Source: Escherichia phage inny. From it: a DNA stretch of 64,000 bases. Below the pieces are notes generated by a model that was not told the origin of the DNA, did no database searches, and saw nothing but the letters and a program-made list of their open reading frames with translations. Position numbers and translations under genes: made by a program. The DNA lies in the sequence record MN850601.1; one strand, given 5' to 3'. This document shows, in pieces, positions 5,260-58,109 of the stretch (its first letter is position 1; each line of letters begins with the position of its first letter).

Positions 5260-7335
5260 ATGAAACAGGCTATTTTTACTGTAACTCGAAATACGAGAGT
5301 AAATGCCAGTTCATTCAGCTATAAGACCGTCGATGGAACGGCGGTCGCTGGTAGAGATTATGTAGCTAAACAGGGAACAGTAACGTTCCCTTCTGATGCA
5401 GATTCTGTTACTGTAGTAGTTGATGTATATGAACGTCCGGCAAACTCTTTAGATCTTTATTTTACTCTTGAGATTACTAGCATAAGTCAAAATAACATGA
5501 TGATCAATGAAGAAATTCGTTGTGTTATTACGACTAATCAATCGAATACAACCCCGCTAACTTGGCCTGTTGTGAAGTCTAGAATGTTTGATCCTAAGTT
5601 TTGGACAATAGATTCTCAAGCAACAGAGAGTTGTTCTATTATCTCTAATGGTGATTCTTTCACAGCAAGAATGGTTAATAGGACAGTGGCTGGTCTTGCT
5701 GGGATTATTTGGTCAACTTACGATAAATATGATCACAAAGGATTAGGCTACCAAGAACATTCTGACTTAAGTAAAGAGAAACTTTGGTTTAAAATGGAAC
5801 TTAGTCAAGGTGTTCCTGGATTAAAAGAAGAAAAATTATTGCCATCCTTAACAGTGACACTGAAGGATGAAACAGTTCATTATGTATCTCTAAACTTTTA
5901 TGCAGAAGAAGTTTCAGAGGACGGTAAAACAGCAATAATCAAATTAGATTTCTCAAATTTAAAATCTGGGCCAGAAAATGATATTGTTGTTGACACTACA
6001 CAGATAGATAACATGTTCTTCTCCTTGATTTCCGCAAGGTATCAAGAAATTGAAGATGTTATACCAGTAGACAATATAGATCTTTCCTTTAAGTTTACCA
6101 TACTAGAGCCTGATACTGGTTACAGTATGATGAATATGGGTAATTTAAATGTTCCGGCGCACACCATAAGAATGTGTACATCTTATGATGATATGTATAA
6201 CCTAACCCCAGAGCGAGTTATTTCTAACACCTATAGATTAGGTTATAGAGATATGATTAACCATTATAATGGTATGTCACACTATTATCAATTTAGTTGG
6301 GATGCTGGATCTAATAAATGGGCTTTGAACAGAACAGAATATTTAAACCCAGCAACAGAAGCCTGGTTTGATAATTTCCACGCTAATGCAAAAGCTATGG
6401 GCTACACAGTAATGAACTCCTTAAGTTTTGAAATTATGAGTACAGTGTGTCCTGTAGAATGGGTACAACATACTTGGAATGATGATCTGGCTGCTACAGG
6501 TTATGAGCCACCAAGTTATGTTTTATCTCCTTCAATTGATGAAGGGATGAATTATTTACAAGGTGTAATAAATAAGATAGCTTCTATATCCGCTGCTAAT
6601 GATCTTCCGGTTATTATTCAGGTTGGTGAACCGTGGTGGTGGTATAACACAGCTACCAATCTACCGTGTATTTATGATTATGCAACCAAAGTTGCATTTA
6701 ATAATGAAACTGGGTTATATGCACAAGATGTTGGTACAGTTAAGAATTATAAAACTGGTACACCATATGATGAATATTATGCATTCCTATCTAAAACATT
6801 AGGACTGCGTGTTGCTAAATTTGCAACAGATACTAAATTAGCCTATCCTGGAGCTAAAGTTACATTATTACCATTTGTGCCATCCATTTTAGGTAATGGT
6901 ATGATGGAGTTTGTTAACTTCCCTAAAGATTATTATATCCCAGAAAACTTTGACTTTTATTGTTCAGAATGTTATGACTGGTTGTTGGAAGGTCAGATGG
7001 AAAGATCTTTCGACGCTATTAAAATACCTAATGAGCAACTAGGTTTTAGTTATGATAAGATACATTATCTTGCAGGGTTTGTTCCAGATGCAACTCTAGC
7101 ACCATTATATGGCTTTGATCCTGAATCAGACTACAGAACATATTTGTGGAAAATGATTATAGGTAATATCGTATTGAACGACCAGAAGTTTGTTGGTTTG
7201 TATCAATACATATGGGCTTATCCACAAATTATGGCAGATTCATTAACTGTTCTTAATTCAAAATCCCAAGTTTTTTATATGGGTAACGTACCTCTGAATG
7301 TCTTTTTACAAGATACAGTATATGTTTCTTCTTAA
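5260..7335 (+). CDS. baseplate-associated protein with N-terminal Calx-beta-like domain
   Basis: 691 aa; N-terminus VDGTAVAGRDYVAKQGTVTFPSDADSVTVVVDVYE matches Calx-beta pattern. Confidence 0.4.
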   Translation: MKQAIFTVTRNTRVNASSFSYKTVDGTAVAGRDYVAKQGTVTFPSDADSVTVVVDVYERPANSLDLYFTLEITSISQNNMMINEEIRCVITTNQSNTTPLTWPVVKSRMFDPKFWTIDSQATESCSIISNGDSFTARMVNRTVAGLAGIIWSTYDKYDHKGLGYQEHSDLSKEKLWFKMELSQGVPGLKEEKLLPSLTVTLKDETVHYVSLNFYAEEVSEDGKTAIIKLDFSNLKSGPENDIVVDTTQIDNMFFSLISARYQEIEDVIPVDNIDLSFKFTILEPDTGYSMMNMGNLNVPAHTIRMCTSYDDMYNLTPERVISNTYRLGYRDMINHYNGMSHYYQFSWDAGSNKWALNRTEYLNPATEAWFDNFHANAKAMGYTVMNSLSFEIMSTVCPVEWVQHTWNDDLAATGYEPPSYVLSPSIDEGMNYLQGVINKIASISAANDLPVIIQVGEPWWWYNTATNLPCIYDYATKVAFNNETGLYAQDVGTVKNYKTGTPYDEYYAFLSKTLGLRVAKFATDTKLAYPGAKVTLLPFVPSILGNGMMEFVNFPKDYYIPENFDFYCSECYDWLLEGQMERSFDAIKIPNEQLGFSYDKIHYLAGFVPDATLAPLYGFDPESDYRTYLWKMIIGNIVLNDQKFVGLYQYIWAYPQIMADSLTVLNSKSQVFYMGNVPLNVFLQDTVYVSS

Positions 7336-7346
7336 GGATCTCTAGT

Positions 7347-7592
7347 ATGAGAAAATTTTTAATAGGTATGTTTTGTACATATCCTGATAATAAAGTCAGT
7401 TCTACTAAAGTTTGGAATGCTATTGGTATGATTGTTATGTCCAGTATGTTTATTTATTTGGGAATTGATAAAGAAATTCCTGAGTGGATGGGCTGGGCTT
7501 TTGTTTTTATGATCACACCATCCAGACTAATGAAGAATTTAATAGATTTACGTTGGGGCAGATCACCTGCCCCTGATAAGGAGGATAACTAA
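7347..7592 (+). CDS. small membrane protein
   Basis: 81 aa, two hydrophobic segments; ATGG/TAATG coupling to downstream J-like gene. Confidence 0.35.
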   Translation: MRKFLIGMFCTYPDNKVSSTKVWNAIGMIVMSSMFIYLGIDKEIPEWMGWAFVFMITPSRLMKNLIDLRWGRSPAPDKEDN

Positions 7593-16076: not shown

Positions 16077-18896
16077 ATGTATCCTATTCCTTTATTTATG
16101 TCAACAACATCAGCTTCAGTAGTAACAGCTACATCTATAACTACTTCCTCTATTGGTATTGCAATAGTTGGTGGTAAAAAACAACTGACATACACAGTTA
16201 CACCGGAAGATGGTGCATTATTTGATATAGCTTTTTCATCTTCAGATAATACCAAAATGGTTATAGATAATAGTGGTATGATGGAGTTTGTTGCCGAAGG
16301 TGGTTTTGATGCAATAATGACAGCTAAAAATAATTTAGGTGCTGTCTTAACTGATCAATCTGGTGGTTATGCTTCAGAATTAAGTGTGTACACTGAAAGT
16401 CTATCGGCTATGGATGTAGGCACTACTCAACAGTTGGTTGCTACAATCAGTCCAGAAGGTGCTAAAGACCTTCCAGATATGGTAATTACATACACCACAA
16501 CAGATCCAGAAGTAGCTACTGTAAGCCCTACAGGGTTAATAACTGCTCTTAAAGATGGCGGTTGCCGTATAGGTTGTACTGCAACGTATCAAGGAACAGT
16601 TGTGGCCTCTGATAGTTCTTATTTAGGTGTTAATGCTATTCCTGTTATTTCTAATGTAACAGCCGTGGCAAACAGCTATGGAGACGTTCGTGTTGCTTGG
16701 GATGTAACTGATCCTCTAGATGGTGATACTTATACTGTAGAAGTATTAGATTTAAGTAATAATAGTGTTCAGTGGACTACAACAACCACGAATACTCATG
16801 CTTACTTTGATATCTCTGACTCTATTCCTCTTTATGGGTTTGCTCCAACATACCTTAAAATTAGCGTTAAGAGCACCAAAGCAGCAGCCGTTATCTTTAA
16901 TAACTCAATAGCTACAGATGATTCGTTCATTAAAGAAGTTATTGTCTTTGCTGGACAAGATAACGTAAATGCACACTTTACAGAACTATCTGGTGCAAAT
17001 AAAGCAGCAATGGGTAGCACAACAGCCCGTAATGCATATGCTACGCAACGTGGTTTAGCAAATGCTGAAGTTCTTCCGTTAAATACAGCTTCTGGATCAT
17101 CAGCAGCAGATAAATATGCTGACGATAAAGCTGGAACAGGTACACCAGATAACTACTGGTATGATCTGGATAACACAGCAGATGGGCCATGCTTAACTAA
17201 CTTTATCACTAAAGTCACACCTTATGCAAGTAAGGTTAAAGCAATTATTTGGGGACAAGGTGAAAATGATGCTGTATCAGCATCTTCGACTGTTGCAGGT
17301 AGGTACAGTAACACTACACGTTACCATGATGCTACGATAGCTATCTTTGATAAGATGCGTACAATAGTTCCTGCTTCTCAAGCAAAAATTGTTTGGCAGA
17401 TCCTAGGACGTTCTTATTTATATGGTGTAGAAGTTAATGGTGTGGATTGGCAGAAGTACAGAAATGTACAAAGAACCATCTCTACAGCACGTGATGATGT
17501 TATCATTGGTTCTTGGGTAGATGGTGCTGAACGTTACAGTGGTTATGTTTATGAAGAAGGTATTGATGGTCGTATCCATTATATTTCTTCTGTATACCAA
17601 ACAGCAGCTACAAAACTTGCTAAATCAGCAGCAGACGGTACAGACTTAACATCAACGTCACCTGTTTGGGTTGATATGGCTGTTCCAACTGGAGCAACAG
17701 CTACTTCCCAACCTAATCAAGATACAATTTTAGCATGGGATGCTCAAGGCTATAGTAAACACTACTTCCGTAATATTAACGTCTTAACCGCATCTGTATT
17801 AACTGAACAAACGCTTAATACGAACAGTTATACGTTTACCTATGCAGATCAAGTAGAACAATATGGTTTTGCAGCAGGAACTACTATATTTGATGTTGCA
17901 TATTATGACGAAGCAAATGATGTGTTATCTCCTTTAGTACGTTTTAATGTTAACGTTACAGCAGGAACCGTAGAAGATAAACCTGTCGTGATGGACTATG
18001 ATTTGACGCAAGAAACTCTTCCATCAGATGTTAAGGTTAATGGTGGGAACTCTTTTGCTCGTGCTTCTGGAGATATACTTGTAGCCACTAACACCTTGGT
18101 TGCTCCGTTGGAGTATGTTGGTAATACCCCTGTAGGTAGACGTGTAACAGCTAACACAGCTTCACAAATTTTTGTCAACAACGCCTTAACAAGTGCAAGC
18201 CCGTGGGTAAAGACCAACTTAACTGTTGCAGCTTCATCTGATAAATCTCCGGCTGGAACTACTGCCAATGTATTCAAATTAACTCCGACTACAACCTCTG
18301 GTAGTCATATCTTAACTGCAACATATACTAACGCGTACAACATATCTGCCGGACGTAACTGGTCTGCCTCTGTTTTCTTGAAAGCAAACGGGATTACTAA
18401 GGCCAAACTAAGATTAAAAGCAGGAACTGAAGTTAATGAGGGTACTTTTGATTTAGCAGCAGGTACATTCACAGGAAGTGAAGCTAATATTATATCTATG
18501 GGCAACGGTTGGTATCGTGCTATTCTGCATAAAACAGGGATAGCCAAACAGTCCTTCATAAGTTTTGAAATAATTGCCTTGGATGCAACTGGTGCGGAGA
18601 TTTTCGCTGGAGATGGTACTAGTAACCTTGCAGTTTGGTTGCCACAGCTTGAAGGTGCTTCTACAGGAGAAACATCAAAAGCTGGATCGCCTTATGTCTG
18701 CACATATCCTGGAAATTTAGGAGGAGTATCCTTCACTATACCAAGGAACGGACATACTGGTGTGGATGTTTACTATTCCAACGGAGACGTTGTTCGTGAC
18801 GTATTCTCTGGTACGGCATCTACTTGGACAATAAACTACTCCAGTTTGTACGATTGGGGATCAGTCTTTATTACAGGTTTGAAATATTACGACTAA
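16077..18896 (+). CDS. tail spike/fiber with Ig-like domain and SASA/SGNH-type carbohydrate esterase-like domain
   Basis: 939 aa; Big_2-like segment (TYTTTDPEVATVSPTGLITALKDG); esterase-like VIVFAGQDNVNAHF and IIWGQGENDA. Confidence 0.6.
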   Translation: MYPIPLFMSTTSASVVTATSITTSSIGIAIVGGKKQLTYTVTPEDGALFDIAFSSSDNTKMVIDNSGMMEFVAEGGFDAIMTAKNNLGAVLTDQSGGYASELSVYTESLSAMDVGTTQQLVATISPEGAKDLPDMVITYTTTDPEVATVSPTGLITALKDGGCRIGCTATYQGTVVASDSSYLGVNAIPVISNVTAVANSYGDVRVAWDVTDPLDGDTYTVEVLDLSNNSVQWTTTTTNTHAYFDISDSIPLYGFAPTYLKISVKSTKAAAVIFNNSIATDDSFIKEVIVFAGQDNVNAHFTELSGANKAAMGSTTARNAYATQRGLANAEVLPLNTASGSSAADKYADDKAGTGTPDNYWYDLDNTADGPCLTNFITKVTPYASKVKAIIWGQGENDAVSASSTVAGRYSNTTRYHDATIAIFDKMRTIVPASQAKIVWQILGRSYLYGVEVNGVDWQKYRNVQRTISTARDDVIIGSWVDGAERYSGYVYEEGIDGRIHYISSVYQTAATKLAKSAADGTDLTSTSPVWVDMAVPTGATATSQPNQDTILAWDAQGYSKHYFRNINVLTASVLTEQTLNTNSYTFTYADQVEQYGFAAGTTIFDVAYYDEANDVLSPLVRFNVNVTAGTVEDKPVVMDYDLTQETLPSDVKVNGGNSFARASGDILVATNTLVAPLEYVGNTPVGRRVTANTASQIFVNNALTSASPWVKTNLTVAASSDKSPAGTTANVFKLTPTTTSGSHILTATYTNAYNISAGRNWSASVFLKANGITKAKLRLKAGTEVNEGTFDLAAGTFTGSEANIISMGNGWYRAILHKTGIAKQSFISFEIIALDATGAEIFAGDGTSNLAVWLPQLEGASTGETSKAGSPYVCTYPGNLGGVSFTIPRNGHTGVDVYYSNGDVVRDVFSGTASTWTINYSSLYDWGSVFITGLKYYD

Positions 18897-18897
18897 T

Positions 18898-18928
18898 AAA
18901 AAAGGAGCCATTAGGCTCCTTTTCTTTT
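18898..18928. terminator. bidirectional terminator at structural/early block boundary
   Basis: GGAGCC-ATTA-GGCTCC hairpin flanked by A-run upstream and T-run downstream; sits between convergent genes. Confidence 0.6.
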
Positions 18929-18931
18929 ATC

Positions 18932-19363
18932 TTAATCAGTGAAAATTACGCTTACATCTTCTTTAGAGAAGAGTTTATGATCTTCACCTTTTGTCTCAAG
19001 AGTTTCATACAGGTTAAGAAGTTCTGAAACATCTTTCTCTACCAGTTTCTTCAATGTTGCAATTTTCTGTTTGCGACTCTTAATACGTTCAGCTACAACC
19101 TTACGCTGGTATCCGGCAGTACGATAACCTGAGAAAGTTACACCAGTGAGACTTGCAGTTACAGGATCGTAGTGACGTTCAATCTGAAACTTATTAAAAG
19201 GTACAGCGTCATCACGAATAATCTTACCGCCATTACTTACCTGACGAAGACCAGTAACTTGTTCCAGTCGTGCCATAGAAATCTTTGGAGACAGACCAGA
19301 GTCCAGGTTCATACCGTTGTTAATCAGTGCTTTCAGGGTGATTTTGCTGTTCAGTGTACTCAT
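18932..19363 (-). CDS. hypothetical protein
   Basis: 143 aa; GGAGG RBS located inside 3' end of upstream MTase gene, 44-nt overlap. Confidence 0.45.
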   Translation of the reverse strand: MSTLNSKITLKALINNGMNLDSGLSPKISMARLEQVTGLRQVSNGGKIIRDDAVPFNKFQIERHYDPVTASLTGVTFSGYRTAGYQRKVVAERIKSRKQKIATLKKLVEKDVSELLNLYETLETKGEDHKLFSKEDVSVIFTD

Positions 19364-20051
19364 TTAGTCGTTCCTCCGCTTGCTTAAAAATATTTACATC
19401 GGCTTCACAGCCTAAGTATTCTCTACCTGTTAAAAGTGCCGCAACTTGTGTTGTTGCACTTCCAGAGAAGAAGTCTAAGACTACATCTCCTTCGTTGGTG
19501 TGTATATTAATAAGGTCACAAAACAAAGTCAAGTGTTTTTGTGTTGGATGAAAACGATCTGCTCCTTGATAGATAGGATACTCAAACACACCCTTATGGT
19601 AGGAAGCATTGAAGGTTGGCTTCGAACCTTTAACACAAACAATAGCCATCTCTTTAGCGTTACTAAGATAGTTAACACCACTGTTGATGGGTACAGGGTT
19701 TGTTTTAATCCATTCGATAGTACGGAACATACGAAAACCAAGCGGTTCAAGGATTTCACGTAGCTCCTGGATCTTCCAGATATCATACCAAACTATGCAA
19801 GTACCACCTTTTCTAAGCACCCTGTAGGCTTCTTTGAATACTTCTTTAAAATAAGGAATATCTACAACATCCCAATCACCGAAGTTGTAAGATACACGGA
19901 ATCTATCCGTATCTTTTCCAGTAGGCTCTCCAGACTGAAAATTTGTGTCACGAGAAATAGCATATGGTGGGTCAGTAAGAATCAAATCTACACTATTGCT
20001 TTCGAGGGTTTGCAGGTAGTTTAATGCAGTGTTGTTTACAAATTCGCTCAT
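19320..20051 (-). CDS. DNA methyltransferase (amino-MTase; N6-adenine or N4-cytosine)
   Basis: N-terminal LILTDPPYAI (DPPY motif IV) and C-terminal VVLDFFSGSATT (FxGxG motif I); no adjacent restriction gene seen. Confidence 0.8.
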   Translation of the reverse strand: MSEFVNNTALNYLQTLESNSVDLILTDPPYAISRDTNFQSGEPTGKDTDRFRVSYNFGDWDVVDIPYFKEVFKEAYRVLRKGGTCIVWYDIWKIQELREILEPLGFRMFRTIEWIKTNPVPINSGVNYLSNAKEMAIVCVKGSKPTFNASYHKGVFEYPIYQGADRFHPTQKHLTLFCDLINIHTNEGDVVLDFFSGSATTQVAALLTGREYLGCEADVNIFKQAEERLNEYTEQQNHPESTD

Positions 20052-43493: not shown

Positions 43494-43964
43494 TTAGTCA
43501 GATTCCCAAATGTTGTCTTTCTTAACCCACATTCGTTGATTATCTGAACCTCTATAACGTTTCGTTGTTGGTTGATTCATATCATACTTACCATCTATCA
43601 CTATGTCAACCAGTTTTTTAATTTTCTCTGGAATTTCTTCAAAAAGATATCCTGTATATAAGACAATATCTTTTTTGTTTCCAAAACAATCTCTTACCTT
43701 CTCAAGAACATACTCTACAGTGTCAATGTTCTCTTTGTCAAGAGGTTCACCACCTAAAACTGTTAATCCTTTAATGAAAGGTCGAGATAAATCTTCCAAG
43801 ATAAGATCTAATGTTTCAGTAGTGAACTCTTGTCCGTAGTTATACGACCAGGCTTTCTGGTTAAAGCAGCCACGGCAACCGTGGCTACAACCGCTCACCC
43901 ACAAAGAGCATCTTACACCATCACCGTTGAGCATGTCAACAGGTTCATATCCGGCGTAATTCAA
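43494..43964 (-). CDS. nrdG: anaerobic ribonucleotide reductase activating protein
   Basis: 156 aa; radical-SAM cluster motif CSHGCRGC near N-terminus; immediately downstream of nrdD with overlapping stop/start. Confidence 0.85.
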   Translation of the reverse strand: MNYAGYEPVDMLNGDGVRCSLWVSGCSHGCRGCFNQKAWSYNYGQEFTTETLDLILEDLSRPFIKGLTVLGGEPLDKENIDTVEYVLEKVRDCFGNKKDIVLYTGYLFEEIPEKIKKLVDIVIDGKYDMNQPTTKRYRGSDNQRMWVKKDNIWESD

Positions 43965-45760
43965 AAATGTTTCTCCCTTTCTAGTACCTCTTGCATTTTA
44001 CCTTTATTATAAGGGCGAGAGTTAGGGGCAGAAAGGTATCCTGACACTCTTCTGATTACAGATATAGATTCTTCCTCATGATTGCCACAACTTGGACACT
44101 CGAAGCCTTTAGCTGTTGCCTTAAATTCACCATGAAAACCACATTTGAAACACTGATCTACAGGTTGGTTCACGCCAAAATAAGGAATTTTGTTGTAGGC
44201 ATAATCTACAAGAGTTTCCAGTGCTTGCAAGTTATTTTTAAGGTTTGGTGTTTCTACATAACCTATGTTCCCACCGTTACTGATTTGTGCAAAACCTTCC
44301 TCATAATCCCACTTTTGGAACGGGGTAGTGTGCATCCACACAGGTTGATGGAAAGAGTTTGTCAAGTAGTCACGATCAATAGAACCAGGATAGCGATCAT
44401 TTAATGCTTTGGCAAATTTATAGCACAAGGATTCTGCTGGTGTTCCATACAAACTAAAAGCTAAACCAGAACGTTCTTTAAATGTGCCACAGATATCCTT
44501 CATATATTGAAGGATGTTTTTACCCATTGCTTTTGGATTGGTGTTACCTGGGTATAAAATCTCCATAGCTTCTGCTAAACCTACATAACCGATACTAATA
44601 GAGGCATAACCACCTTCAAATAGTTTACCAATCTCTTCATTAGCTTCTAGTCGAGCTAAAGCCCCTTCCATAAACAATGTAGGGTTTTGAGATGCTTTGG
44701 TATGTCTAATACGGTTAACACGTAGCATATGTGCCTTATACGCCATCTCCATATGTTGTTCCAACAGTTCAGTAAATAAGATGCCCTTTTCACGGGACTC
44801 TGCTGCAATGATAGGTAAGTTTAAAGAAACTACGCCTAAGTTGAAACGACCATCATATTTTTCACCTTGCTCTGTTGCATAGTATGACAAGAAGCTACGG
44901 CAACCCATGCTTGTGACGCGACCATCTGAAGATCCTGTAACTTCTTTATTTAAAGGTACAGAGATAAAATCAGGATAAATGCGTTCAGCACAACACTCCA
45001 TTGCCAGTTGCTTCAAATCATAGTTTGGATCGCCAGCTTTCATGTTAACACCATCTTCCAAGAAGAAGATAACTTTAGGAAACACAGGAGTTACCCTATC
45101 TTTTCCCAATCCTTGTTTGTGCACCATTAGGTAGTTTTTAGTGATCATTCTACCAAAAGCAGAGGTATCCAAACCTAAACTAATTGTTATAAAAGGTGAC
45201 TGACCATTTACACTCATTAGAGTGTTCACCTGGTAGATTAAAGTTTGCATTGCATCATAGACCTGTTTATCTACCATACGCATAGCAATATCATAATCGC
45301 CAACATCGGCATATATTTTATTAAAACTTGCTTTAACGTATTGACTAAGCCCAGTATCAACATGTGCACAAGTTTGTCCACCATATTGGCTAGAAGCTAC
45401 TGCTTGAATAATTTGAGTTAGGACAGTAGTCGCTACACCGATAGATTTTGGTTTTTCAATATGTGCATTACCAATACGGAAACCGTTCTCAAGCATATCT
45501 TGGTAATTTACCAGGCAACAATTAGTTAAAGGTGAGAGTAAATAATCTAAATCGTGAATGTGACCATACCCACTTTTATGCCATTCTGCCAGATCTTCCG
45601 GTAAAATATGGGTCATTGCCATGTGCTTGCTTAGGATACCTGCTAGTAAGTCTCGGTGAGTATTAACAATCATTGCAGGTTTGTTTGCATTTTCACGAGT
45701 AAATTCTTCGGATGTTTGTTCGAGGAATCCGATTACATCCTCATATAGTTTTTGGGTCAT
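43961..45760 (-). CDS. nrdD: anaerobic ribonucleoside-triphosphate reductase (start set at ATG with GGAGG RBS)
   Basis: About 600 aa; C-terminal Cys4 ribbon CFKCGFHGEF...CPSCGN and glycyl-radical site RRVSGYL. Confidence 0.9.
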   Translation of the reverse strand: MTQKLYEDVIGFLEQTSEEFTRENANKPAMIVNTHRDLLAGILSKHMAMTHILPEDLAEWHKSGYGHIHDLDYLLSPLTNCCLVNYQDMLENGFRIGNAHIEKPKSIGVATTVLTQIIQAVASSQYGGQTCAHVDTGLSQYVKASFNKIYADVGDYDIAMRMVDKQVYDAMQTLIYQVNTLMSVNGQSPFITISLGLDTSAFGRMITKNYLMVHKQGLGKDRVTPVFPKVIFFLEDGVNMKAGDPNYDLKQLAMECCAERIYPDFISVPLNKEVTGSSDGRVTSMGCRSFLSYYATEQGEKYDGRFNLGVVSLNLPIIAAESREKGILFTELLEQHMEMAYKAHMLRVNRIRHTKASQNPTLFMEGALARLEANEEIGKLFEGGYASISIGYVGLAEAMEILYPGNTNPKAMGKNILQYMKDICGTFKERSGLAFSLYGTPAESLCYKFAKALNDRYPGSIDRDYLTNSFHQPVWMHTTPFQKWDYEEGFAQISNGGNIGYVETPNLKNNLQALETLVDYAYNKIPYFGVNQPVDQCFKCGFHGEFKATAKGFECPSCGNHEEESISVIRRVSGYLSAPNSRPYNKGKMQEVLEREKHF

Positions 45761-45778
45761 TAATCCTCCGTGGAAAAT

Positions 45779-45801
45779 AAAAGCCAGCATTAAGCTGGCT
45801 T
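45779..45801 (-). terminator. rho-independent terminator upstream of nrdD RBS
   Basis: AAAGCCAGC-(4 nt)-GCTGGCTTT hairpin, minus strand followed by TATTTT then GGAGG. Confidence 0.5.
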
Positions 45802-45849: not shown

Positions 45850-46800
45850 TTAGTCAAGGTTTTTGGTAATACGTGTACAACCATCAGAAGTCAAACCGTC
45901 AACTTGAGTTTCCCAAGTGCCATGAATATTTCGGAACAATGTTGTTACACCTTTTGGTTCATTAATAATGATTGCCATAACAAGTTTAGGATCGATAACA
46001 GACATAATCTTTTCCTCAATACCCTCTGTAATAACATTATTACGCACAATATTAATTACATCTTCTTGTACAGAAAGGGTACTTACGTTCTTAAGAGTAT
46101 ATACCTGCTGCGTAGTGTAAATGATACGAACATAACTTACAGAACGAGTAGGCACAGGTTTACGCGGTCGGCGAAAACGTGGTTTTGGTGAAGATTCAGT
46201 CTTACTTTCATTTTTTGAATAATACTCCTCAAACAGTTTAGTAAATGTTTTTACATCAACTACAAACCGATCTTTCCTATATGGAGAATTCTTATGTGCA
46301 CCATTAATACCACTGTTTTCATCGAAGAAAGTAATGTTTTCTTCAGTTGAATATGTTAGATAATGGTTTGCATCTTTCCAATGTGGTTGTGGACAATGCG
46401 GATTACAAACGGAAAGCAGATAACTAATATCTTCTTCCGTTGCACTAGTATCCAAGAAACACGTATTATGCACAGTCAGTTCTACTTTTGCAACCATATC
46501 CATTTCTTTATCCTCATTGGCAAGATATTCAGTACGAATAATCTCCAGAAAACCTTCAGGTGTTACTTCCATAAATGTGTATTCAGGGTGAAGTTCCATA
46601 TATTCAAATCCACAACCATCTAATTGCTGTAGGAAGTTAGGATAGAAGAACAAGTCATTAACACTATGAATCAGATCATTGATTTCTGCTTCAGATGTGT
46701 AACCAAAACTTTTGTGAATTGCTTCATTAAGAATATGCAGGATACCCATCTCTTCTGCTGCTTTTTTAACTTCCAGTTTATTAGCGTAAAATGCAATCAT
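45850..46800 (-). CDS. hypothetical protein
   Basis: 316 aa; AAGGAG RBS. Confidence 0.45.
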   Translation of the reverse strand: MIAFYANKLEVKKAAEEMGILHILNEAIHKSFGYTSEAEINDLIHSVNDLFFYPNFLQQLDGCGFEYMELHPEYTFMEVTPEGFLEIIRTEYLANEDKEMDMVAKVELTVHNTCFLDTSATEEDISYLLSVCNPHCPQPHWKDANHYLTYSTEENITFFDENSGINGAHKNSPYRKDRFVVDVKTFTKLFEEYYSKNESKTESSPKPRFRRPRKPVPTRSVSYVRIIYTTQQVYTLKNVSTLSVQEDVINIVRNNVITEGIEEKIMSVIDPKLVMAIIINEPKGVTTLFRNIHGTWETQVDGLTSDGCTRITKNLD

Positions 46801-46817: not shown

Positions 46818-47252
46818 TTAGTTTAAAATTTCTTTGGCAATGGTAGAAGCAAGTTTTCCATCATATTGATTAGGATACTCTGCTTTAAGGTGTTTCATCA
46901 TATCTGGCATTTTCTTGCCTGTCAAGGCAAATTCTTCAGCAATCGCTCGAAGGTCATCTTCAGATAGCATTTCTGGTAAATATTTTTCCAGAGTGGTGAT
47001 ATCACGCATAGCTCGCTCACATTTGCTAATGGAAGCATTAACTTTCTTAAGTGAGTCTAGCTCCTCTTTAGCGTGTGCAATACCAATCTTAACAATGTTA
47101 ATCATAATATCATCTTCTGATTTATTTAGATTTGCCTTTTGAGTACGAGCAAGGTCAAACTCACCAATAATATTAGTTAACAAAGCAAAAGCACCCTTAT
47201 CGGTTGTACGTGCTAAGATACGATCTGCTTTCATTTGTGTCACAATAGACAT
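46818..47252 (-). CDS. GatB/YqeY-domain protein
   Basis: 144 aa; LPEMLSEDDLRAIAEEFALTGKKMPDMMKHLKAEYPNQYDGKLASTIAKEIL follows YqeY pattern. Confidence 0.7.
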   Translation of the reverse strand: MSIVTQMKADRILARTTDKGAFALLTNIIGEFDLARTQKANLNKSEDDIMINIVKIGIAHAKEELDSLKKVNASISKCERAMRDITTLEKYLPEMLSEDDLRAIAEEFALTGKKMPDMMKHLKAEYPNQYDGKLASTIAKEILN

Positions 47253-47264
47253 TCTATTCTCCTC

Positions 47265-47837
47265 TTATTTGCTAATGCTTTGAATCTTATTTACAACACG
47301 GTTTATTGCCAGTGAAGCCCTAGGCTCCGCAATACCTGTTGCATAGATATAAGGATGACCTTTTGGAGACTCCCTTATACCGAATGAACCTAATTCTAAA
47401 CCATATTCATCTTCTACGTCAACCCCAATATTAGTGGGTACTAAATATGTTTTAACTCCATAATAAGTAGAGAAGAAACAGCGCATAGAGTTAGCATACT
47501 CTTCAATTGTAGCATCAGGGTAGAACTCAATCAACTCCAATTTCAAGAAAATATTAAAATGAGTATCATCTAAATTTTCTTCTGTACGGTAACATGGTGT
47601 TAGTGCCATATAAGGATTACCTGCTGCAAATTCAAAACCATCCTTCTCCATTTGCAGGAAAGATTGTTCTGCACTGGCTACATAGTATTTACCGTTAGGA
47701 TGCCCTAATGGGCGATCCTCTTTATTTTCTGGTAGTGTGTACGCCAGTATATCAGCATCCACGAGATATGGAACTTCCAACATCTGTGCAAACCGACCAT
47801 AGTAATCAATAGCTTGAGCTATTACTTCAACATTCAT
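47265..47837 (-). CDS. hypothetical protein with possible class II aminoacyl-tRNA-synthetase-like motif 2
   Basis: 190 aa; TPCYRTEENLDDTHFNIFLKLELIEFY resembles class II motif 2 (FRNE...H..EF..lE.y); weak single-motif evidence. Confidence 0.3.
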   Translation of the reverse strand: MNVEVIAQAIDYYGRFAQMLEVPYLVDADILAYTLPENKEDRPLGHPNGKYYVASAEQSFLQMEKDGFEFAAGNPYMALTPCYRTEENLDDTHFNIFLKLELIEFYPDATIEEYANSMRCFFSTYYGVKTYLVPTNIGVDVEDEYGLELGSFGIRESPKGHPYIYATGIAEPRASLAINRVVNKIQSISK

Positions 47838-48085
47838 GAGCGACCTCCATTGCGGAATGCACGTTTAGTAATGTTCGACATAGTGATCAAATCTTGAAGC
47901 GTCATATCAGGAAAATGCTGTTCAAGAACACCTTCAACAGCGCCTACAATATCTGATAACTCGATAAGTTGCATCAGCTTGCAATCTTGATCAATAGCAT
48001 CCTGAAGTTCATAAAGCTCTTCTTGAATTTTAGCAATAGAACCATATTCCTCTTTGCTAATCTCCTTCAAATGATACCCTGCCAC
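47834..48085 (-). CDS. MazG-like nucleotide pyrophosphohydrolase-like small protein
   Basis: 83 aa all-helical; IQEELYELQDA and ELSDIVGAVEG resemble MazG/HisE EExxE...D pattern; GTG start after AAGGGGG. Confidence 0.4.
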   Translation of the reverse strand: MAGYHLKEISKEEYGSIAKIQEELYELQDAIDQDCKLMQLIELSDIVGAVEGVLEQHFPDMTLQDLITMSNITKRAFRNGGRS

Positions 48086-48095
48086 TTTAACCCCC

Positions 48096-49832
48096 TTAGT
48101 TTACCAGTTTATTTATATCTGGTAAAAGATTTATTTCACCTAAAAAATCACCTTCACCTTCCTCTAACCAACTCTCATATGCTTGTGCATGATTATAGTT
48201 ACCATCAAAAGAATCTGCAACAAATTTTTCTACAGCTTTTCGAGATGTGCCAGTGCCAAATACACCAAGTTTAATACCATTGATCGGTAAAGTGGTGCTT
48301 GTTGGTACTTTCTCTGTTGCAACACGGTTAATATCTATAATCTCCTGTACGGTTGTGTTCCATTGTAAGCATTTAACACAACGGGTATGCGCTACATACA
48401 GTAGGTTTCGCTCTGCCTCTTCCAGTCCTATCCATTGACCAGTCTTTTTATCATAGTTGGAAGGAAAATCATTAGCAACAATAACCTGATCCCACTCCAA
48501 ACCTTTAGACTTGTGTGCTGTAGTCAGTGTGACTTTTGCTGTAGGAGAATTTCTATGCGTTCTAAGTGTATGTGCTATAGTGTTTGCCTTACCAGAAACT
48601 ACGATGTTTAACAAGCGTTTAGCATCTGGATCAGCCTCTGCACACTCAACAAATTCATTCCAGTCTGCGTAAGGTAATACAGTTTCATGTTTTACTTTCT
48701 CAATATCTCCTCTCCGAAGAGCATTAACACTATCTACCATAGAGATAAAATCCCTGGTATCTACGTTAATAATAATTTCTTCCCCATCTGCAATACGATC
48801 CATTGCCTCCATAAGCAAGGTTAAATTCTTGCGAAAGATGATAGTGTAAGGTTTTGTATAGTCTACAACATCTGATTTGTAGCTACCTACTACAGTATCA
48901 AAGCCTTTACCAACCAAAGGATGACGCAAAGGTTCTTTATCGCTTAAAATCATATTGGCAATGTTTGCCACTTTGGGGCCAAAACGGAAGCAAGCAGTTA
49001 ATGGAAGCTCTGCCCCATATGTAGAGGTTTCCTTCATCATATTTTGGCTTCCACGGAACTGGTAGATGCTCTGATATTCGTCACCCACCACTACTACTTG
49101 TTTTGCAGATTTAGCATTTCGCAGAATAGACAAGAATGCAGGGTTAACATCCTGAAATTCATCACCAAAAATAATATCATAACCAAGATCAGCACCAGAT
49201 AATTCAAACAATTTTACATAGGTATCATGCGTCATCAAAGTATCTGTATTAGGATCGATGCGCTCTCGCCACAATTGTTTTGCATACTTAACTACTTCTG
49301 TAATTAGTTTGTGTTCGTTAATACCTTTTCTTTTAATATCTGCAAGATGTACACTAGGAAAATGTTTACGGCTGATAAAAGGATCATCCGAAAATTCAAA
49401 CTTACCTACGGTTTGCTTGATCATTAAACCAATCATAGCACGAGTTAAAAGTGTTTTCCCTCGTTTATCAATAAGATTATTAATCTTAAATTTCTTTGCT
49501 ATCTCACTACCTGTACCTGCAACGTTAACATACTGTCCTTCTGGTCGTGACAGTTTTGCACGTAAACGATGATCCAGGAATTGATAGCAAATAGAATGCA
49601 ATGTACGGCATTCTACATTTAGTGGCATCTTACGTCGTGCTTCTTCTGCCATGCTTTTATTGAAAGCTAAGTAAAGAATGCGATCTTCTGTACTGTTAGC
49701 CAGCAAATAAAGTGTTGACGTTTTGCCTGATCCAGATTTAGCTTGGATAGTTAAAAAGCGATGGTCTGGAAAAGCCTCCTTAATAGCTGTTTGCTCTTCT
49801 GTTGGAGTGAAGCTCAACTCTTTCTTAGCCAT
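48096..49832 (-). CDS. UvrD/Rep-type SF1 DNA helicase (start at ATG with AGAGAGG RBS)
   Basis: Walker A QAKSGSGKTSTL and motif II IIFGDEFQD. Confidence 0.8.
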   Translation of the reverse strand: MAKKELSFTPTEEQTAIKEAFPDHRFLTIQAKSGSGKTSTLYLLANSTEDRILYLAFNKSMAEEARRKMPLNVECRTLHSICYQFLDHRLRAKLSRPEGQYVNVAGTGSEIAKKFKINNLIDKRGKTLLTRAMIGLMIKQTVGKFEFSDDPFISRKHFPSVHLADIKRKGINEHKLITEVVKYAKQLWRERIDPNTDTLMTHDTYVKLFELSGADLGYDIIFGDEFQDVNPAFLSILRNAKSAKQVVVVGDEYQSIYQFRGSQNMMKETSTYGAELPLTACFRFGPKVANIANMILSDKEPLRHPLVGKGFDTVVGSYKSDVVDYTKPYTIIFRKNLTLLMEAMDRIADGEEIIINVDTRDFISMVDSVNALRRGDIEKVKHETVLPYADWNEFVECAEADPDAKRLLNIVVSGKANTIAHTLRTHRNSPTAKVTLTTAHKSKGLEWDQVIVANDFPSNYDKKTGQWIGLEEAERNLLYVAHTRCVKCLQWNTTVQEIIDINRVATEKVPTSTTLPINGIKLGVFGTGTSRKAVEKFVADSFDGNYNHAQAYESWLEEGEGDFLGEINLLPDINKLVN

Positions 49833-49833
49833 T

Positions 49834-50310
49834 TCAACCTCTCTTAATTTGTTTAACAAGCATAGGAACAAAATCTCGTTTTAAAATTTGTTCAATAATA
49901 TGATCAGGTAGCTGTTGGAAATTATAATTAAAAGCTACTGTCTCACCTTTAGGTGTTTCTACCCGCACATATAACATGTTACGAAGTTTATCCACTTGTG
50001 CTGTATATTCTAAACCATGTAATTGATGCATTGCAAACATCAAGTCATCAGTTTCAGTTTGGAATCTATCATTTGCTTGCATTAAGGACAAGGTAAAAGG
50101 TAGATTTTCCCTAAGAGCCACCTTCTTAGGAACTAGTGAAGGAAAATACTCACCAATAACTTCCTGTGTAAGCTGGATACACTCTTTTTCAAGTTGGTTT
50201 TGTTCCTTAAGTTCACAAACACTTTTTTGTAAAGTGTTAACCTCTTTTTGCAAAGCTGCTAGTTGAGCACTTAACTTTCTTTTTTGATTACGACCAAAAC
50301 GTTTAGACAT
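49834..50310 (-). CDS. hypothetical coiled-coil protein
   Basis: 158 aa; basic N-terminus then heptad-like region. Confidence 0.45.
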   Translation of the reverse strand: MSKRFGRNQKRKLSAQLAALQKEVNTLQKSVCELKEQNQLEKECIQLTQEVIGEYFPSLVPKKVALRENLPFTLSLMQANDRFQTETDDLMFAMHQLHGLEYTAQVDKLRNMLYVRVETPKGETVAFNYNFQQLPDHIIEQILKRDFVPMLVKQIKRG

Positions 50311-55445: not shown

Positions 55446-56549
55446 TTAATCAATTTTTTCACTAACAAAATTTTTTATATTTTCATAATCTTCTAGATTA
55501 TATGTTTCTGTATATCCATCCGGTAGCCACTCTTTTAAGCATAAAGAGCGGTTAAAACATTTTTTAACTTCTTTCTCCAAAGCGAAAATAGTAGCATAAT
55601 CTCCACTGAAACTGTCAAGTAGATAATGCTTAAACATGCTGTTTTTACTTTGCTCTTTGATTCTACGATCAATATCTACCGTAATCCCTGCTTTCAAGCA
55701 GGTATAAAACGGAGAAACCAATTTTTGTATATAAAAACACCAATTTGATTGTTGGTTTTCGGTGTACGGAATTTCTTTTACTCTTTTTTGCTTTTTAACA
55801 TTCATCTCTGTAAAGGGTAATGCTTTATAGAGTGATGTTTGACCGTGGCGTGTCTCTACAGAAAGAACTCCCATATCAACAAACATATTTATAATATTGC
55901 GTACCTGACGATCACTAACCATTCCAATATTAGCTAATGTTTTTTGAGTAGCGTAACATTCTTGCCCTTGTTCATTGAATCCAGCTATATAGCTATAGAT
56001 TTCAACGGCTGGCAGTGTAGCGGTGTATTCATTACCAGATGGTGAATACCATTTTTTAAACATTTTCCATTCTGTAGGGGGAAGCTGTTCAGGAACAGCT
56101 TTAACAGTAGATACTTGCTCTGTCTGTGGCTTTTCTGCATTTACAGAGGCTTTCGCTTCTCTTGGGGGAGTAATATGTGCATCTGTGAGAGGTAGCGCAC
56201 GTAATTTTAAAGGACGTTTTGGAATTCGTTCTCCGACCTCTTCTAAAAGACCGATTTTAATCATAATACCAATCAATTCATTAACTGTCTTACGGCTACA
56301 GCTACAAACTTTACTTAACTTCGTTTGTGTTTCAAAACATATTCCCCCTGATTTATCCCAATCTGAAACATAGCAATATAATTTTTGCATTTCTACACTA
56401 AACTTAACTTTTCCACCACCAACACTTGAGGAGTAGATAAACTCAATCTCACAAAAGTAATGAGGTATATTCAAAGTTCGGTCTTTAATTTCTCCTGTTT
56501 GTTTATCAACATACTGGTATTTTTCACGAATCAATTTAATTTTAGACAT
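55446..56549 (-). CDS. hypothetical protein with two helix-turn-helix-like segments (start at ATG with AAGGAG RBS)
   Basis: Segments TVNELIGIMIKIGLL and ATQKTLANIGMVSDRQVRNIINMFVDMGVL resemble winged-helix recognition regions. Confidence 0.45.
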   Translation of the reverse strand: MSKIKLIREKYQYVDKQTGEIKDRTLNIPHYFCEIEFIYSSSVGGGKVKFSVEMQKLYCYVSDWDKSGGICFETQTKLSKVCSCSRKTVNELIGIMIKIGLLEEVGERIPKRPLKLRALPLTDAHITPPREAKASVNAEKPQTEQVSTVKAVPEQLPPTEWKMFKKWYSPSGNEYTATLPAVEIYSYIAGFNEQGQECYATQKTLANIGMVSDRQVRNIINMFVDMGVLSVETRHGQTSLYKALPFTEMNVKKQKRVKEIPYTENQQSNWCFYIQKLVSPFYTCLKAGITVDIDRRIKEQSKNSMFKHYLLDSFSGDYATIFALEKEVKKCFNRSLCLKEWLPDGYTETYNLEDYENIKNFVSEKID

Positions 56550-56586
56550 TAGAATAATCTCCTTATAAATCACGCTTAATGCGCTA

Positions 56587-56769
56587 CTAAAGTGAATGAG
56601 GATCATTTACCTTTTTTTGTTTGATATTCTCTGCTGCTTCAGTAATGATTTCTAACATCAAATCACTGACCATAATTTGCCTTTTCTTGGCTTCAGCAAA
56701 TAAAACCTTGAAGATTTCAGGGTCAACGTGTAGGTAAGTGCGCGGAATTGGTTTCTTAGTTTCGCTCAT
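56587..56769 (-). CDS. small ribbon-helix-helix-like protein (start at internal ATG with AAGGAG RBS)
   Basis: 60 aa; PRTYLHVDPEIFKVLFAEAKKRQIMVSDLMLEII resembles RHH/Arc-type regulators. Confidence 0.35.
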   Translation of the reverse strand: MSETKKPIPRTYLHVDPEIFKVLFAEAKKRQIMVSDLMLEIITEAAENIKQKKVNDPHSL

Positions 56770-56782
56770 AGTTTTCTCCTTA

Positions 56783-57136
56783 TTACATCCACAGATTATG
56801 GAAATACTTAGCAAACAAAATACGACCTTCTAAACGATCTTGCCGCTGTTTTTCATTAACTTCTTCTGGTGGAGTTGAGTCCTTAAAAGAAGACTCCATT
56901 TTTTCAAGAATTTCTAACCAGTGTTCTGCTGCTCGTTCTTCCATATAAGGTAGATAGTCACCTTTAGCGTGTGGGTACATCCGACGAAGTAACCCACTAG
57001 GAATTTTAACATTGTTTGTGGCTATCACTTTTGCACGATATGCAGAAAGTGCATTGTAGATCAGTTTACTTAGTGTCACATCTAGATCAAGAAGATCACT
57101 CTCTTCAAATTGAATTTCATCGTGTACAATTTTCAT
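56783..57136 (-). CDS. hypothetical protein
   Basis: 117 aa; AAGGAGAG RBS. Confidence 0.4.
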   Translation of the reverse strand: MKIVHDEIQFEESDLLDLDVTLSKLIYNALSAYRAKVIATNNVKIPSGLLRRMYPHAKGDYLPYMEERAAEHWLEILEKMESSFKDSTPPEEVNEKQRQDRLEGRILFAKYFHNLWM

Positions 57137-57147
57137 ATCACTCTCCT

Positions 57148-57438
57148 TTATAGTAAAACACGTTTTGCACTGCTTGGTGCATTGTCGAACATGTTTATCA
57201 CTTTGTCAAGTTTGTGTATTAACTCGTTCGTAATGTTCCACTCTTTGTATGATCTCCATTGTTTCTTATTCTCACCTACCTGGTGTAAAACTTTGATTGG
57301 TGCATTCAAACGTACATTGCGTTCTTTGTCCTCTTCAAAAGAGGCTAACCATTTTTCGTTATGCCCATGAACAGCAATAATAATGCCAAAACCATCAAAA
57401 GTTTCTGTAATATTCTTAGTTGCTAGTGTGATGTTCAT
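57148..57438 (-). CDS. hypothetical protein, first gene of minus-strand block
   Basis: 96 aa; AGAGG RBS; preceded by divergent intergenic region. Confidence 0.4.
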   Translation of the reverse strand: MNITLATKNITETFDGFGIIIAVHGHNEKWLASFEEDKERNVRLNAPIKVLHQVGENKKQWRSYKEWNITNELIHKLDKVINMFDNAPSSAKRVLL

Positions 57439-57497
57439 ATCTAACCTCTTTTGTTACGATGCACACAGAGTACCAGAAATTAATTTCAGATCAAGTA

Positions 57498-57526
57498 TTG
57501 ACATACTGTTTTATTGTGCTAATCTT
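57498..57526 (+). promoter_or_regulatory. candidate sigma70-like promoter in divergent intergenic region
   Basis: TTGACA, 16-17 nt spacer, TAATCT/AATCTT, about 30 nt upstream of ATG at 57558. Confidence 0.3.
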
Positions 57527-57557
57527 AATGCATACACAAATGAGAGGAGATAAACGA

Positions 57558-58109
57558 ATGCAAAACATCGATCTGACTTGGATAGAAGCCAAAGAAGCAA
57601 TGTTAAAAGGCAAACGCGTTAAACATAAATACTTCTGCGAAGGAGAATGGTTTGAAATGTGTAACCGATCCATTGTAGATGAAAAAGGGAATGACATGCA
57701 ACAATGGTTCAAAAATGAAATTTGGCAGGGAACAGGTTGGTCTATAGTTGAAGAGCAGCCTAGCTCAAGCGCACTGTTTAGCCCTATTATGTATCGCGTT
57801 ATCGGTGCTTTAGTTGTTGATCACGGGATTGCAGTGGAAAAAGAATGCTGGGAAGAGGTATCTTTTTTCAACCTGGCTTCTTATGCAAAAAGCCATATGC
57901 ACTTGTTTGAAGAAGGGGATGAATTTGTTCTTCGTATGCGATATGGCAAAGAATTCAGATTACCACTTGATAACGATGTAGACACTGTTGTAAAATGGTT
58001 AGCAGAGCATTACGCTTACGATGCAATTTGTGGTCGCAGCTTCGGCAACGAACGCTGGGACATGATTTGTGAAAAATATGATTTTGAGCCGGAGTACGGA
58101 GTTTTATAA
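57558..58109 (+). CDS. hypothetical protein (start at ATG with GAGAGGAG RBS)
   Basis: ORF 57459..58109 trimmed to ATG at 57558. Confidence 0.45.
   Translation: MQNIDLTWIEAKEAMLKGKRVKHKYFCEGEWFEMCNRSIVDEKGNDMQQWFKNEIWQGTGWSIVEEQPSSSALFSPIMYRVIGALVVDHGIAVEKECWEEVSFFNLASYAKSHMHLFEEGDEFVLRMRYGKEFRLPLDNDVDTVVKWLAEHYAYDAICGRSFGNERWDMICEKYDFEPEYGVL

Follow-up and report, generated by a model that had tools for sequence, protein, structure and literature searches.

Among paralogues of the aminoacyl-tRNA synthetases (aaRSs) that work outside translation, AsnA, HisZ, EpmA, BirA, LplA, and the amino acid:[carrier protein] ligases have all brought new chemistry to light. The amino acid:[carrier protein] ligases, for which a phosphopantetheinylated carrier protein is the partner, derive from the zinc-dependent, methanogen-type seryl-tRNA synthetase (SerRS), and HisZ has lost its catalytic residues. 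Phage nucleoside triphosphate (NTP) pyrophosphohydrolases of the MazG family (Atd1, cyanophage MazG) are small, all-alpha proteins with an acidic signature of the EExxE/ExxD type. Here, we describe positions 46,818 to 48,085 of a 64,000-nucleotide (nt) stretch of Escherichia phage inny (MN850601.1; below, the window is that whole stretch), where a 190-amino-acid (aa) class II aaRS-like protein (the core) is encoded beside an 83-aa protein that is its dedicated partner. This partnership is our main new result; the pair is conserved, sometimes fused, and spans large phages, bacteria of the Candidate Phyla Radiation (CPR), and DPANN archaea. We read it as a tRNA-independent, serine-type adenylating enzyme that would act with a nucleotide pyrophosphohydrolase, and we give this reading of its chemistry a probability of about 0.5.

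A SerRS-derived mini-core of ~180 residues, coupled or fused to a HisE/MazG-like domain in large phages, CPR, and DPANN, appears to be undescribed. Nothing relevant was found in the literature on a phage mini-SerRS, a link between YqeY and SerRS, or an aaRS-like/MazG pairing, and no curated Pfam or NCBIfam model was found for the core family. The family is large (1,594 representatives across viruses, bacteria, and archaea) and would hold a complete SerRS-type active site in ~180 residues. A class II core of that length approaches the size of the engineered “urzymes.”

Several described systems come close to the pair, and none coincides with it. Compared with SerRS, the core starts at motif 1, without the N-terminal coiled-coil tRNA-binding arm and without an anticodon-binding domain (no Pfam Seryl_tRNA_N match); it is ~100 to 140 residues shorter than the SerRS catalytic domain, fails the Pfam and NCBIfam SerRS models (no Pfam family above threshold, tRNA-synt_2b included; 0 NCBIfam families), has a HisE/MazG-like partner that no SerRS has, and coexists with a canonical SerRS in one archaeal locus. 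The amino acid:[carrier protein] ligases (Bll0957, PDB 3mey) are tRNA-independent SerRS-like paralogues, but they share only 10% identity with the core. A carrier-protein role for the partner was considered and rejected: its only candidate serine, S44, is just 85% conserved, it matches no acyl or peptidyl carrier protein, and it bears instead an acidic, metal-binding signature of the NTP-pyrophosphohydrolase type; nor was a carrier gene seen among the clustered neighbors of the core loci.

The combination of HisZ or histidyl-tRNA synthetase (HisRS) with HisE differs in other respects: here there is no HisG, the signatures are SerRS-like, all catalytic residues are kept, and the partner scores below the PRA-PH gathering threshold. 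Like the MazG-family phage enzymes, the partner is small, all-alpha, phage-encoded, and marked by an EExxE/ExxD-type acidic signature, but it is shorter (83 aa, three helices), falls below the Pfam thresholds for both MazG and PRA-PH, and was not seen here as an independent gene family, being tied to the class II core by adjacency or fusion.

Pairing and distribution of the core and its partner

The three open reading frames (ORFs) on which the earlier note on this DNA was based, those of the pair and of a 144-aa YqeY/GatB C-terminal-domain protein, were all confirmed, every one on the minus strand. The pair itself is laid out as follows.

47834..48085, minus strand: 83-aa partner protein (phrog_6408), a probable three-helix HisE/MazG-like domain, with a GTG start
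47265..47837, minus strand: 190-aa predicted minimal class II (SerRS-like) adenylating core (phrog_4806)
47834..47837, minus strand: ATGA in which the stop of the 83-aa gene overlaps the start of the 190-aa gene (4 nt; putative translational coupling), read directly from the sequence

A GGAGG sits 8 nt upstream of the 190-aa start. Directly upstream of the core, the partner gene is likewise found in phiTE, phAPEC8, and CcrColossus, and in Vibrio phage 2.275.O the two genes abut; junctions that overlap or abut were seen in the last three of these phages.

Homologues of the core numbered 59 in a word-indexed search and 1,594 (representatives of 50% identity clusters) in an exhaustive profile search, most of them 175 to 200 aa long. 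Full-length fusions, with the core N-terminal and the 83-aa domain C-terminal, were present in 8 of the 150 best representatives (phmmer E values, 1e-14 to 6e-26), and gp131 of Microcystis phage LMM01 is a core-partner fusion. On a 229-kb JGI contig, the 83-aa domain forms the N terminus of the protein upstream of the core. Phage records with the partner numbered 262 and those with the core 272, their counts per genus being almost the same, and the partner adjoins or is fused to the core in nearly all phage loci examined.

A scan of a genome collection (one genome per prokaryotic species) yielded 20 core loci. The partner was detected in 18 of these, being encoded upstream in 12 (11 adjacent, 1 with an intervening gene) and fused in 6 (Woesebacteria, WWE3, Woesearchaeota, two Nanoarchaeota, and one archaeon); in the remaining 2 loci it was undetected. 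The Woesearchaeota locus L016 encodes its fused protein at 6001-6801. Several loci belong to real chromosomes; one example is the Saccharibacteria cassette, flanked by fusA-rpsG on one side and rpoC on the other in a 0.8-Mb contig. The core and the partner probably form one complex, because they are fused in several lineages; presumably, this would be a 2:2 dimer.

Phage genomes pack unrelated small genes tightly, and promoter-like and terminator-like sites were not enriched over shuffles, so that operon boundaries are undefined. Both points suit an account in which the three genes are functionally unrelated neighbors in a dense early/middle gene block. For the 83-aa/190-aa pair, the fusions, an adjacency kept across domains of life, and phyletic profiles that nearly coincide refute that account, and we find it scarcely credible for the three genes as a whole, while it is quite possible that the YqeY protein is functionally unrelated to the pair.

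A variant arrangement was noted in a Chloroflexota metagenome-assembled genome (MAG; locus L029, 339-836), where one ORF of 166 aa, immediately upstream of the core, encodes two 83-aa domains in tandem.

Fold and active site of the core

Searched singly against the PDB, the 190-aa protein returned only noise (FGF1; E value, 0.88), and a family profile was required. With this profile, Aquifex aeolicus SerRS was the best match (E value, 7.7e-5), followed by AspRS and PylRS, and HisRS was absent among the 35 PDB matches; hhalign aligned the core to Escherichia coli SerRS with 88% probability (E value, 3e-6). The AlphaFold model (predicted local distance difference test [pLDDT], 95.2; predicted template modeling score [pTM], 0.89) has the antiparallel beta-sheet, alpha+beta fold of the class II aaRS superfamily, and Foldseek matched it to PylRS and SerRS catalytic domains at ~1e-9, with PylRS catalytic domains among the top matches. 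In structure comparisons, 185 of the 190 residues aligned, to the catalytic domain only, at 15 to 19% identity for SerRS versus 8 to 11% for HisRS/HisZ. Profile, hhalign, AlphaFold/Foldseek, and residue conservation agree, and by sequence and model the 190-aa protein is a genuine minimal class II catalytic core, closest to SerRS. The earlier note had rated its class II call as weak, on one motif 2-like segment (TPCYRTEENLDDTHFNIFLKLELIEFY, residues 80 to 106 of the 190-aa protein); the call is now strong.

The following elements of the active site were located, all within the core gene.

47757..47831, minus strand: motif 1 region (helix 3-13, then a strand with P23, “VPYLV”), aligned by hhalign to VPYLV of E. 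coli SerRS
47667..47675, minus strand: S55-A-E57, predicted counterpart of SerRS T-x-E, an element in contact with the alpha-amino group of the amino acid, aligned to E. coli T237-A-E239
47535..47600, minus strand: motif 2, T80-P-C-Y-R84-T-E86 ... F97-L-K99-L-E101, with a shortened acidic loop, aligned by hhalign
47373..47396, minus strand: E148-L-G-S151-F-G-I-R155 strand, matching in pattern the E-x-x-S of the SerRS Mg2+ site (E355-I-S-S358 in E. coli)
47313..47354, minus strand: motif 3, strand 162-171 followed by a helix from 173, T167-G-I-A-E-P-R173, with the pattern of E. coli S391-G-L-A-V-G-R397

Motif 2 aligned to TPCFR268-S-E270 ... F287-D-K-V-E291 of E. coli SerRS. The SerRS-type pattern is present throughout the core (T/S-A-E; TPC[FY]RxE; FxKxE; ExxS; [ST]G[LI]AxxR), its first three elements being aligned by hhalign. 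For the second half of the core (ExxS and motif 3), no significant sequence alignment to E. coli SerRS was obtained, and the equivalence there is by pattern and topology only: in the core model, residues 148 to 156 form a beta-strand, and R173 is located at the strand-helix junction.

Conservation was computed over 216 distinct family sequences. Thirteen residues (S55, E57, R84, F97, K99, E101, D140, E148, G150, S151, T167, P172, and R173) are 100% invariant; P23 of motif 1 is conserved in 97% of the sequences and R155 in 96%, and the position two after R84 (position 86) is Glu or Asp in 96%. The ATP-binding device of class II enzymes consists of two arginines (the “arginine tweezers”) and a Glu two residues past the first (PMC5919687). 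R84 and R173 correspond, by sequence pattern, to these tweezers. Motif 3 and both ATP-binding arginines, the points on which the earlier note had wanted the class II call checked, are thus present, and structure prediction recovers a class II fold with the ATP-binding residues conserved.

Because these 13 residues are invariant across 216 sequences, the core is not a decayed pseudoenzyme. The same observation bears on whether the core might be a noncatalytic ligand sensor, comparable to HisZ or to the HisRS-like domain in GCN2, through which a catalytic MazG/HisE-like pyrophosphatase (acting, e.g., on (p)ppGpp or deoxynucleoside triphosphates [dNTPs]) would be regulated. We judge this very improbable, as the arginines, the Mg-site Glu and Ser, and the adenine-stacking Phe are all 100% invariant, as expected of an active enzyme, and the core is nearer in identity to SerRS than to HisRS or HisZ, with no HisRS among its PDB profile matches.

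In Thermus thermophilus SerRS, the equivalents of E57, E101, and T167 contact the amino and hydroxyl groups of serine, and the equivalents of E148 and S151 hold Mg2+. Serine specificity of the core is something that we only infer.

Some members of the core family (P0103, P0097, P0157, and P0037) bear Cys-rich C-terminal tails of zinc-ribbon-like appearance in place of the 83-aa domain. No Pfam domain was matched by the N- or C-terminal extensions of family members, these tails included.

Character of the partner

Conservation in the partner was computed over 46 distinct sequences, in which Y4, H5, K19, E22, E23, E26, E42, D45, and T73 are invariant and D29 is 96% conserved. Two acidic motifs stand out.

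47999..48022, minus strand: E22-E23-x-x-E26-x-x-D29, putative metal-binding helix of the partner, aligned to KvaEEaaE of HisE (2a7w)
47951..47962, minus strand: E42-L-S-D45, second acidic motif of the partner (E42, L43, and D45 100% invariant)

The AF2 model has three helices (pLDDT, 90), with the acidic residues on helices 17-32 and 36-57. Pfam PRA-PH scored 14.5 bits on the 83-aa protein of the window (cutoff, 21.3) and matched 12 of 20 partner family members below threshold (best E value, 0.001). HisE 2a7w was on top in the PDB profile search (E value, 0.45), and the best Foldseek matches were HisE (1yvw and 2a7w), MazG (3cra and 2yxh), and HisIE (6j2l), with E values of 1.6 to 8 and template modeling (TM) scores of 0.47 to 0.57; both searches stayed below significance. 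Every best match of the partner is nevertheless an all-alpha NTP pyrophosphohydrolase, though none is significant. The MazG-type identity that the earlier note suggested for this protein is consistent with these data: the invariant acidic residues and the run of HisE and MazG matches favor it, but the Pfam, PDB profile, and Foldseek scores are all below threshold. From these sequence and structure matches, we call the partner a probable “MazG/HisE-like” domain.

tRNA as a possible substrate

The motif 2 loop of SerRS inserts into the tRNA acceptor-stem groove (PMC9427863). In the core family, this loop has 12 aa and a median net charge of −3, compared with 18 aa and +1 in E. coli SerRS, and such a loop, six residues shorter and acidic, argues at the sequence level against canonical acceptor-stem docking without precluding it. 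Basic positions at least 90% conserved in the core family number only four, all of them in the active site. In a Nanoarchaeota MAG (locus L020), a canonical 431-aa SerRS with Seryl_tRNA_N and tRNA-synt_2b domains (3798-5090) is encoded two genes upstream of the fused mini-core. Near the 19 loci searched for tRNAs, eight tRNA genes of differing identities were found, none for Ser, which is approximately the background level for small genomes, and neither tRNA genes nor Rfam families were found in the 64-kb window. The acidic isoelectric point (pI) of the core (4.6) was dropped as an argument against tRNA, as E. coli SerRS is likewise acidic (pI 5.3).

These results have to be set against a minimalist, multipiece aaRS, in which the core would serylate a tRNA, of host or phage origin, or a tRNA-like acceptor while tRNA is bound in trans, by the YqeY protein in this phage and by the 83-aa domain or other factors elsewhere. 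Such an enzyme would account for the full conservation of the SerRS-type active site and for the gene that follows the core, 12 nt downstream, whose product is kin to the tRNA-binding domains of GatB and GlnRS (PMC13374519); a phage homologue of YqeY also lies within a tRNA gene array. Split class II synthetases offer precedent for a small catalytic subunit that needs a separately encoded partner: bacterial GlyRS consists of catalytic alpha and tRNA-binding beta subunits (alpha2beta2; PMC8464048), and in the PylSc + PylSn system, PylSc of Desulfitobacterium hafniense, one of the PDB matches of the core, is a stand-alone catalytic domain. In those systems, however, the partner binds tRNA, whereas here the conserved partner has a nucleotide- or metal-binding signature, acidic rather than RNA-binding in type, and YqeY is not conserved with the core, being missing from the 27 other distinct loci examined and differently distributed among phages. 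The short acidic loop, the lack of conserved basic residues beyond the active site, the canonical SerRS beside the fused gene in L020, and the lack of tRNA-Ser or tRNA enrichment near the loci and of any tRNA or Rfam match in the window weigh against it too. We consider a multipiece aaRS doubtful.

The earlier note had listed tRNA among the possible substrates. With no tRNA-binding appendage on the core, a short acidic motif 2 loop, conserved basic residues confined to the active site, the separate SerRS in L020, and neighbors from nucleotide metabolism, the tRNA body is disfavored as a substrate of the core.

Proposed activity

As a serine-type adenylating enzyme acting with a pyrophosphohydrolase, the pair would most likely work as follows. 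The core, probably a dimer, would bind ATP via its two class II arginines (R84 and R173) and Mg2+ via E148 and S151, and it would probably activate a small polar alpha-amino acid, L-serine being the likeliest, at its carboxylate to yield an aminoacyl-adenylate and pyrophosphate. The partner would probably use its EExxE...D/ExxD cluster, together with K19 and R82, to bind Mg2+ and a nucleoside polyphosphate and to cleave the alpha-beta bond of the latter. Working as one complex, the two would share a nucleotide-type substrate or carry out consecutive steps in one pathway, with an acceptor other than the tRNA body.

A bolder form of this proposal, which we hold tentatively and would not expect to prevail, is an ancient two-domain enzyme whose core serylates a nucleotide held by the HisE/MazG-like domain (giving an aminoacyl-nucleotide or new messenger) or serylates RNA 3' ends without recognition of a tRNA body. 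If true, serylation of a nucleotide or of RNA 3' ends would be a new activity of the synthetase superfamily, performed by the smallest natural class II aminoacylating enzyme. The substrate would also show a need common to large phages and ultra-small symbiotic cells, and the family offers a natural test of the minimal size of a class II core.

SerRS is reportedly a classical class II enzyme that forms diadenosine tetraphosphate (Ap4A). The pair could by analogy be an Ap4A/Ap4N or nucleotide-messenger module, in which the core spends its aminoacyl-adenylate on adenylylating a second NTP and the partner supplies, shapes, or degrades the polyphosphate product. The core has no tRNA-binding parts, the partner is similar to enzymes that break the alpha-beta bond of NTPs, and NUDIX hydrolases recur beside the pair, all of which would fit. 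No result singles out Ap4N, however, and fusing a synthase to an enzyme that hydrolyzes its product would give a futile cycle unless the two differ in specificity; we regard such a module as quite unlikely.

Genes around the pair

The window shares ~99% identity with E. coli phages of the genus Justusliebigvirus (phi92, outra, muut, and alia; Stephanstirmvirinae); in phi92, gp196 and gp197 are the counterparts of the pair. Here the genes form part of a long block on the minus strand, in which the order along the transcript is UvrD-type helicase, 83-aa protein, 190-aa protein, YqeY, 316-aa protein, NrdD, and NrdG. The neighbors of the pair are as follows.

48096-49871, minus strand: UvrD-type helicase, ahead of the 83-aa gene in transcript order
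46818..47252, minus strand: YqeY/GatB-C-terminal-domain protein, 144 aa, a lineage-specific neighbor outside the conserved module
45850-46800, minus strand: 316-aa protein, downstream of YqeY in transcript order
43961-45790, minus strand: NrdD, followed by NrdG

The loci analyzed here numbered 29; 437 flanking ORFs from 26 loci were clustered, and no universal third gene emerged among the clustered loci. Recurrent neighbors were NrdR (3 loci), NUDIX hydrolases (3 loci), RlaP-type nucleotidyltransferases (4 phage-type loci), and AAA_28 (NadR-RNK-type) kinases, the last directly upstream in 3 loci; a uridine-kinase-family (Udk-type) protein and an NAD(P)HX dehydratase occurred at single loci. 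Together with NrdD and NrdG in the window, this context suggests nucleotide metabolism rather than translation. Searched against the PADLOC defense models, neither the core nor the partner, YqeY, or a fused homologue gave a match (0 families).

A radical-SAM protein of ~225 aa abuts the fused gene in five CPR/DPANN loci, and a relative (305 aa) is encoded near the fused gene of LMM01.

L015, 5234-6001: radical-SAM neighbor
L016, 6791-7471: radical-SAM neighbor
L017, 5272-5946: radical-SAM neighbor
L018, 6795-7457: radical-SAM neighbor
L028, 6771-7454: radical-SAM neighbor
L003, 6908-7822: radical-SAM neighbor

This protein could be a third member of the pathway. Its identification as QueE or NrdG was not supported (generic MoaA, viperin, and NrdG2 matches, far below cutoffs), and no NrdD was found beside the radical-SAM gene in CPR loci.

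In four DPANN loci, a protein of 279 to 290 aa, with no Pfam, NCBIfam, or PHROG match, is encoded divergently upstream of the fused gene.

L016, 4580-5416, minus strand: 279-290-aa divergent protein
L018, 5033-5869, minus strand: 279-290-aa divergent protein
L020, 5087-5956, minus strand: 279-290-aa divergent protein
L028, 4996-5847, minus strand: 279-290-aa divergent protein

The YqeY neighbor

The start of the YqeY gene lies 12 nt past the 190-aa stop, with a GAGGA of its own. Its product is a genuine, full-length member of the YqeY/GatB C-terminal-domain proteins, as the earlier note had it: Pfam PF09424 scored 30.3 bits (cutoff, 27; E value, 5e-7; model positions 34 to 143 of 143), phrog_1460 matched with an E value of 1.5e-36, and Bacillus subtilis YqeY (1ng6) matched with an E value of 1e-4. 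YqeY is the sole domain found, without the N-terminal domains or the rest of GatB. YqeY is related to the tRNA-binding domains of GatB and GlnRS, and cellular YqeY is still described as poorly characterized (PMC13374519). The cellular gene is typically linked to rpsU and not to synthetase-like genes.

A functional trio, which the earlier note had proposed, is not supported, since the pair is conserved or fused while YqeY was found in none of the 27 other distinct loci examined that contain the core, and its distribution among phages (Vibrio T5-like phages, Sinorhizobium phages, and jumbo phages) is unlike the core's. In the sister genus Phapecoctavirus, the next gene follows directly after the core, with no YqeY between. 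YqeY adjoins the pair only in Justusliebigvirus, which makes the locus a duo plus a neighbor, unrelated or accessory; it is a separate, probably tRNA-associated protein.

Two phage homologues have settings of their own. In the T5-like Vibrio phage Chester (NC_055830.1; L032, 3396-3839), YqeY lies amid a 20-gene tRNA array, a position that suggests a tRNA-related role of phage YqeY independent of the mini-synthetase. In Sinorhizobium phage phiN3 (L031, 3495-3920), it lies 1.6 kb upstream of genes for an NMN/NaMN adenylyltransferase and a nicotinate phosphoribosyltransferase (5571-7414; NAD salvage).

Annotation of the genes

The individual gene calls are not new: they match public annotations, which contradict one another. 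Among near-identical phages in GenBank, the 190-aa protein is named a “seryl,” “histidyl,” or “putative” tRNA synthetase, the YqeY protein a “tRNA amidotransferase” or “GatB/YqeY,” and the 83-aa protein “PRA-PH” or “MazG-type fold.” The “histidyl” label (PHROG/RefSeq) was rejected, as the core has no HisRS among its PDB matches, only 8 to 11% identity, and no C-terminal anticodon-binding domain. From their domain content, the labels “tRNA amidotransferase” and “Asp/Glu-tRNA synthetase” overannotate a lone GatB-tail-like domain. Inconsistent synthetase labels extend to hundreds of phage genomes, therapeutic-candidate E. coli phages among them, and would be corrected by a known substrate. The presence of the core gene should not lead phage papers to credit a phage with a tRNA synthetase of its own.

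The 316-aa protein is called “ribonucleotide reductase” by phrog_15930 and RefSeq yet has no Pfam domain, and the name looks unsupported. Its counterpart in phAPEC8, gp043 (462 aa), resembles it only weakly at the N terminus and, with 46% identity, over ~100 aa at the C terminus; gp043 was also considered as a YqeY/316-aa fusion, which was rejected, as gp043 has no similarity to YqeY.

The records “Campylobacter phage A150” and “C3” (MG065639.1 and MG065656.1; stated host, Campylobacter jejuni) share 96 to 100% protein identity with all three proteins, and their host assignment looks doubtful.

In the window, the GC skew switches sign at ~18000-20000 and ~56000-58000, with a cumulative peak near 18 kb and a minimum near 58 kb, which is consistent with changes of the predominant coding strand.

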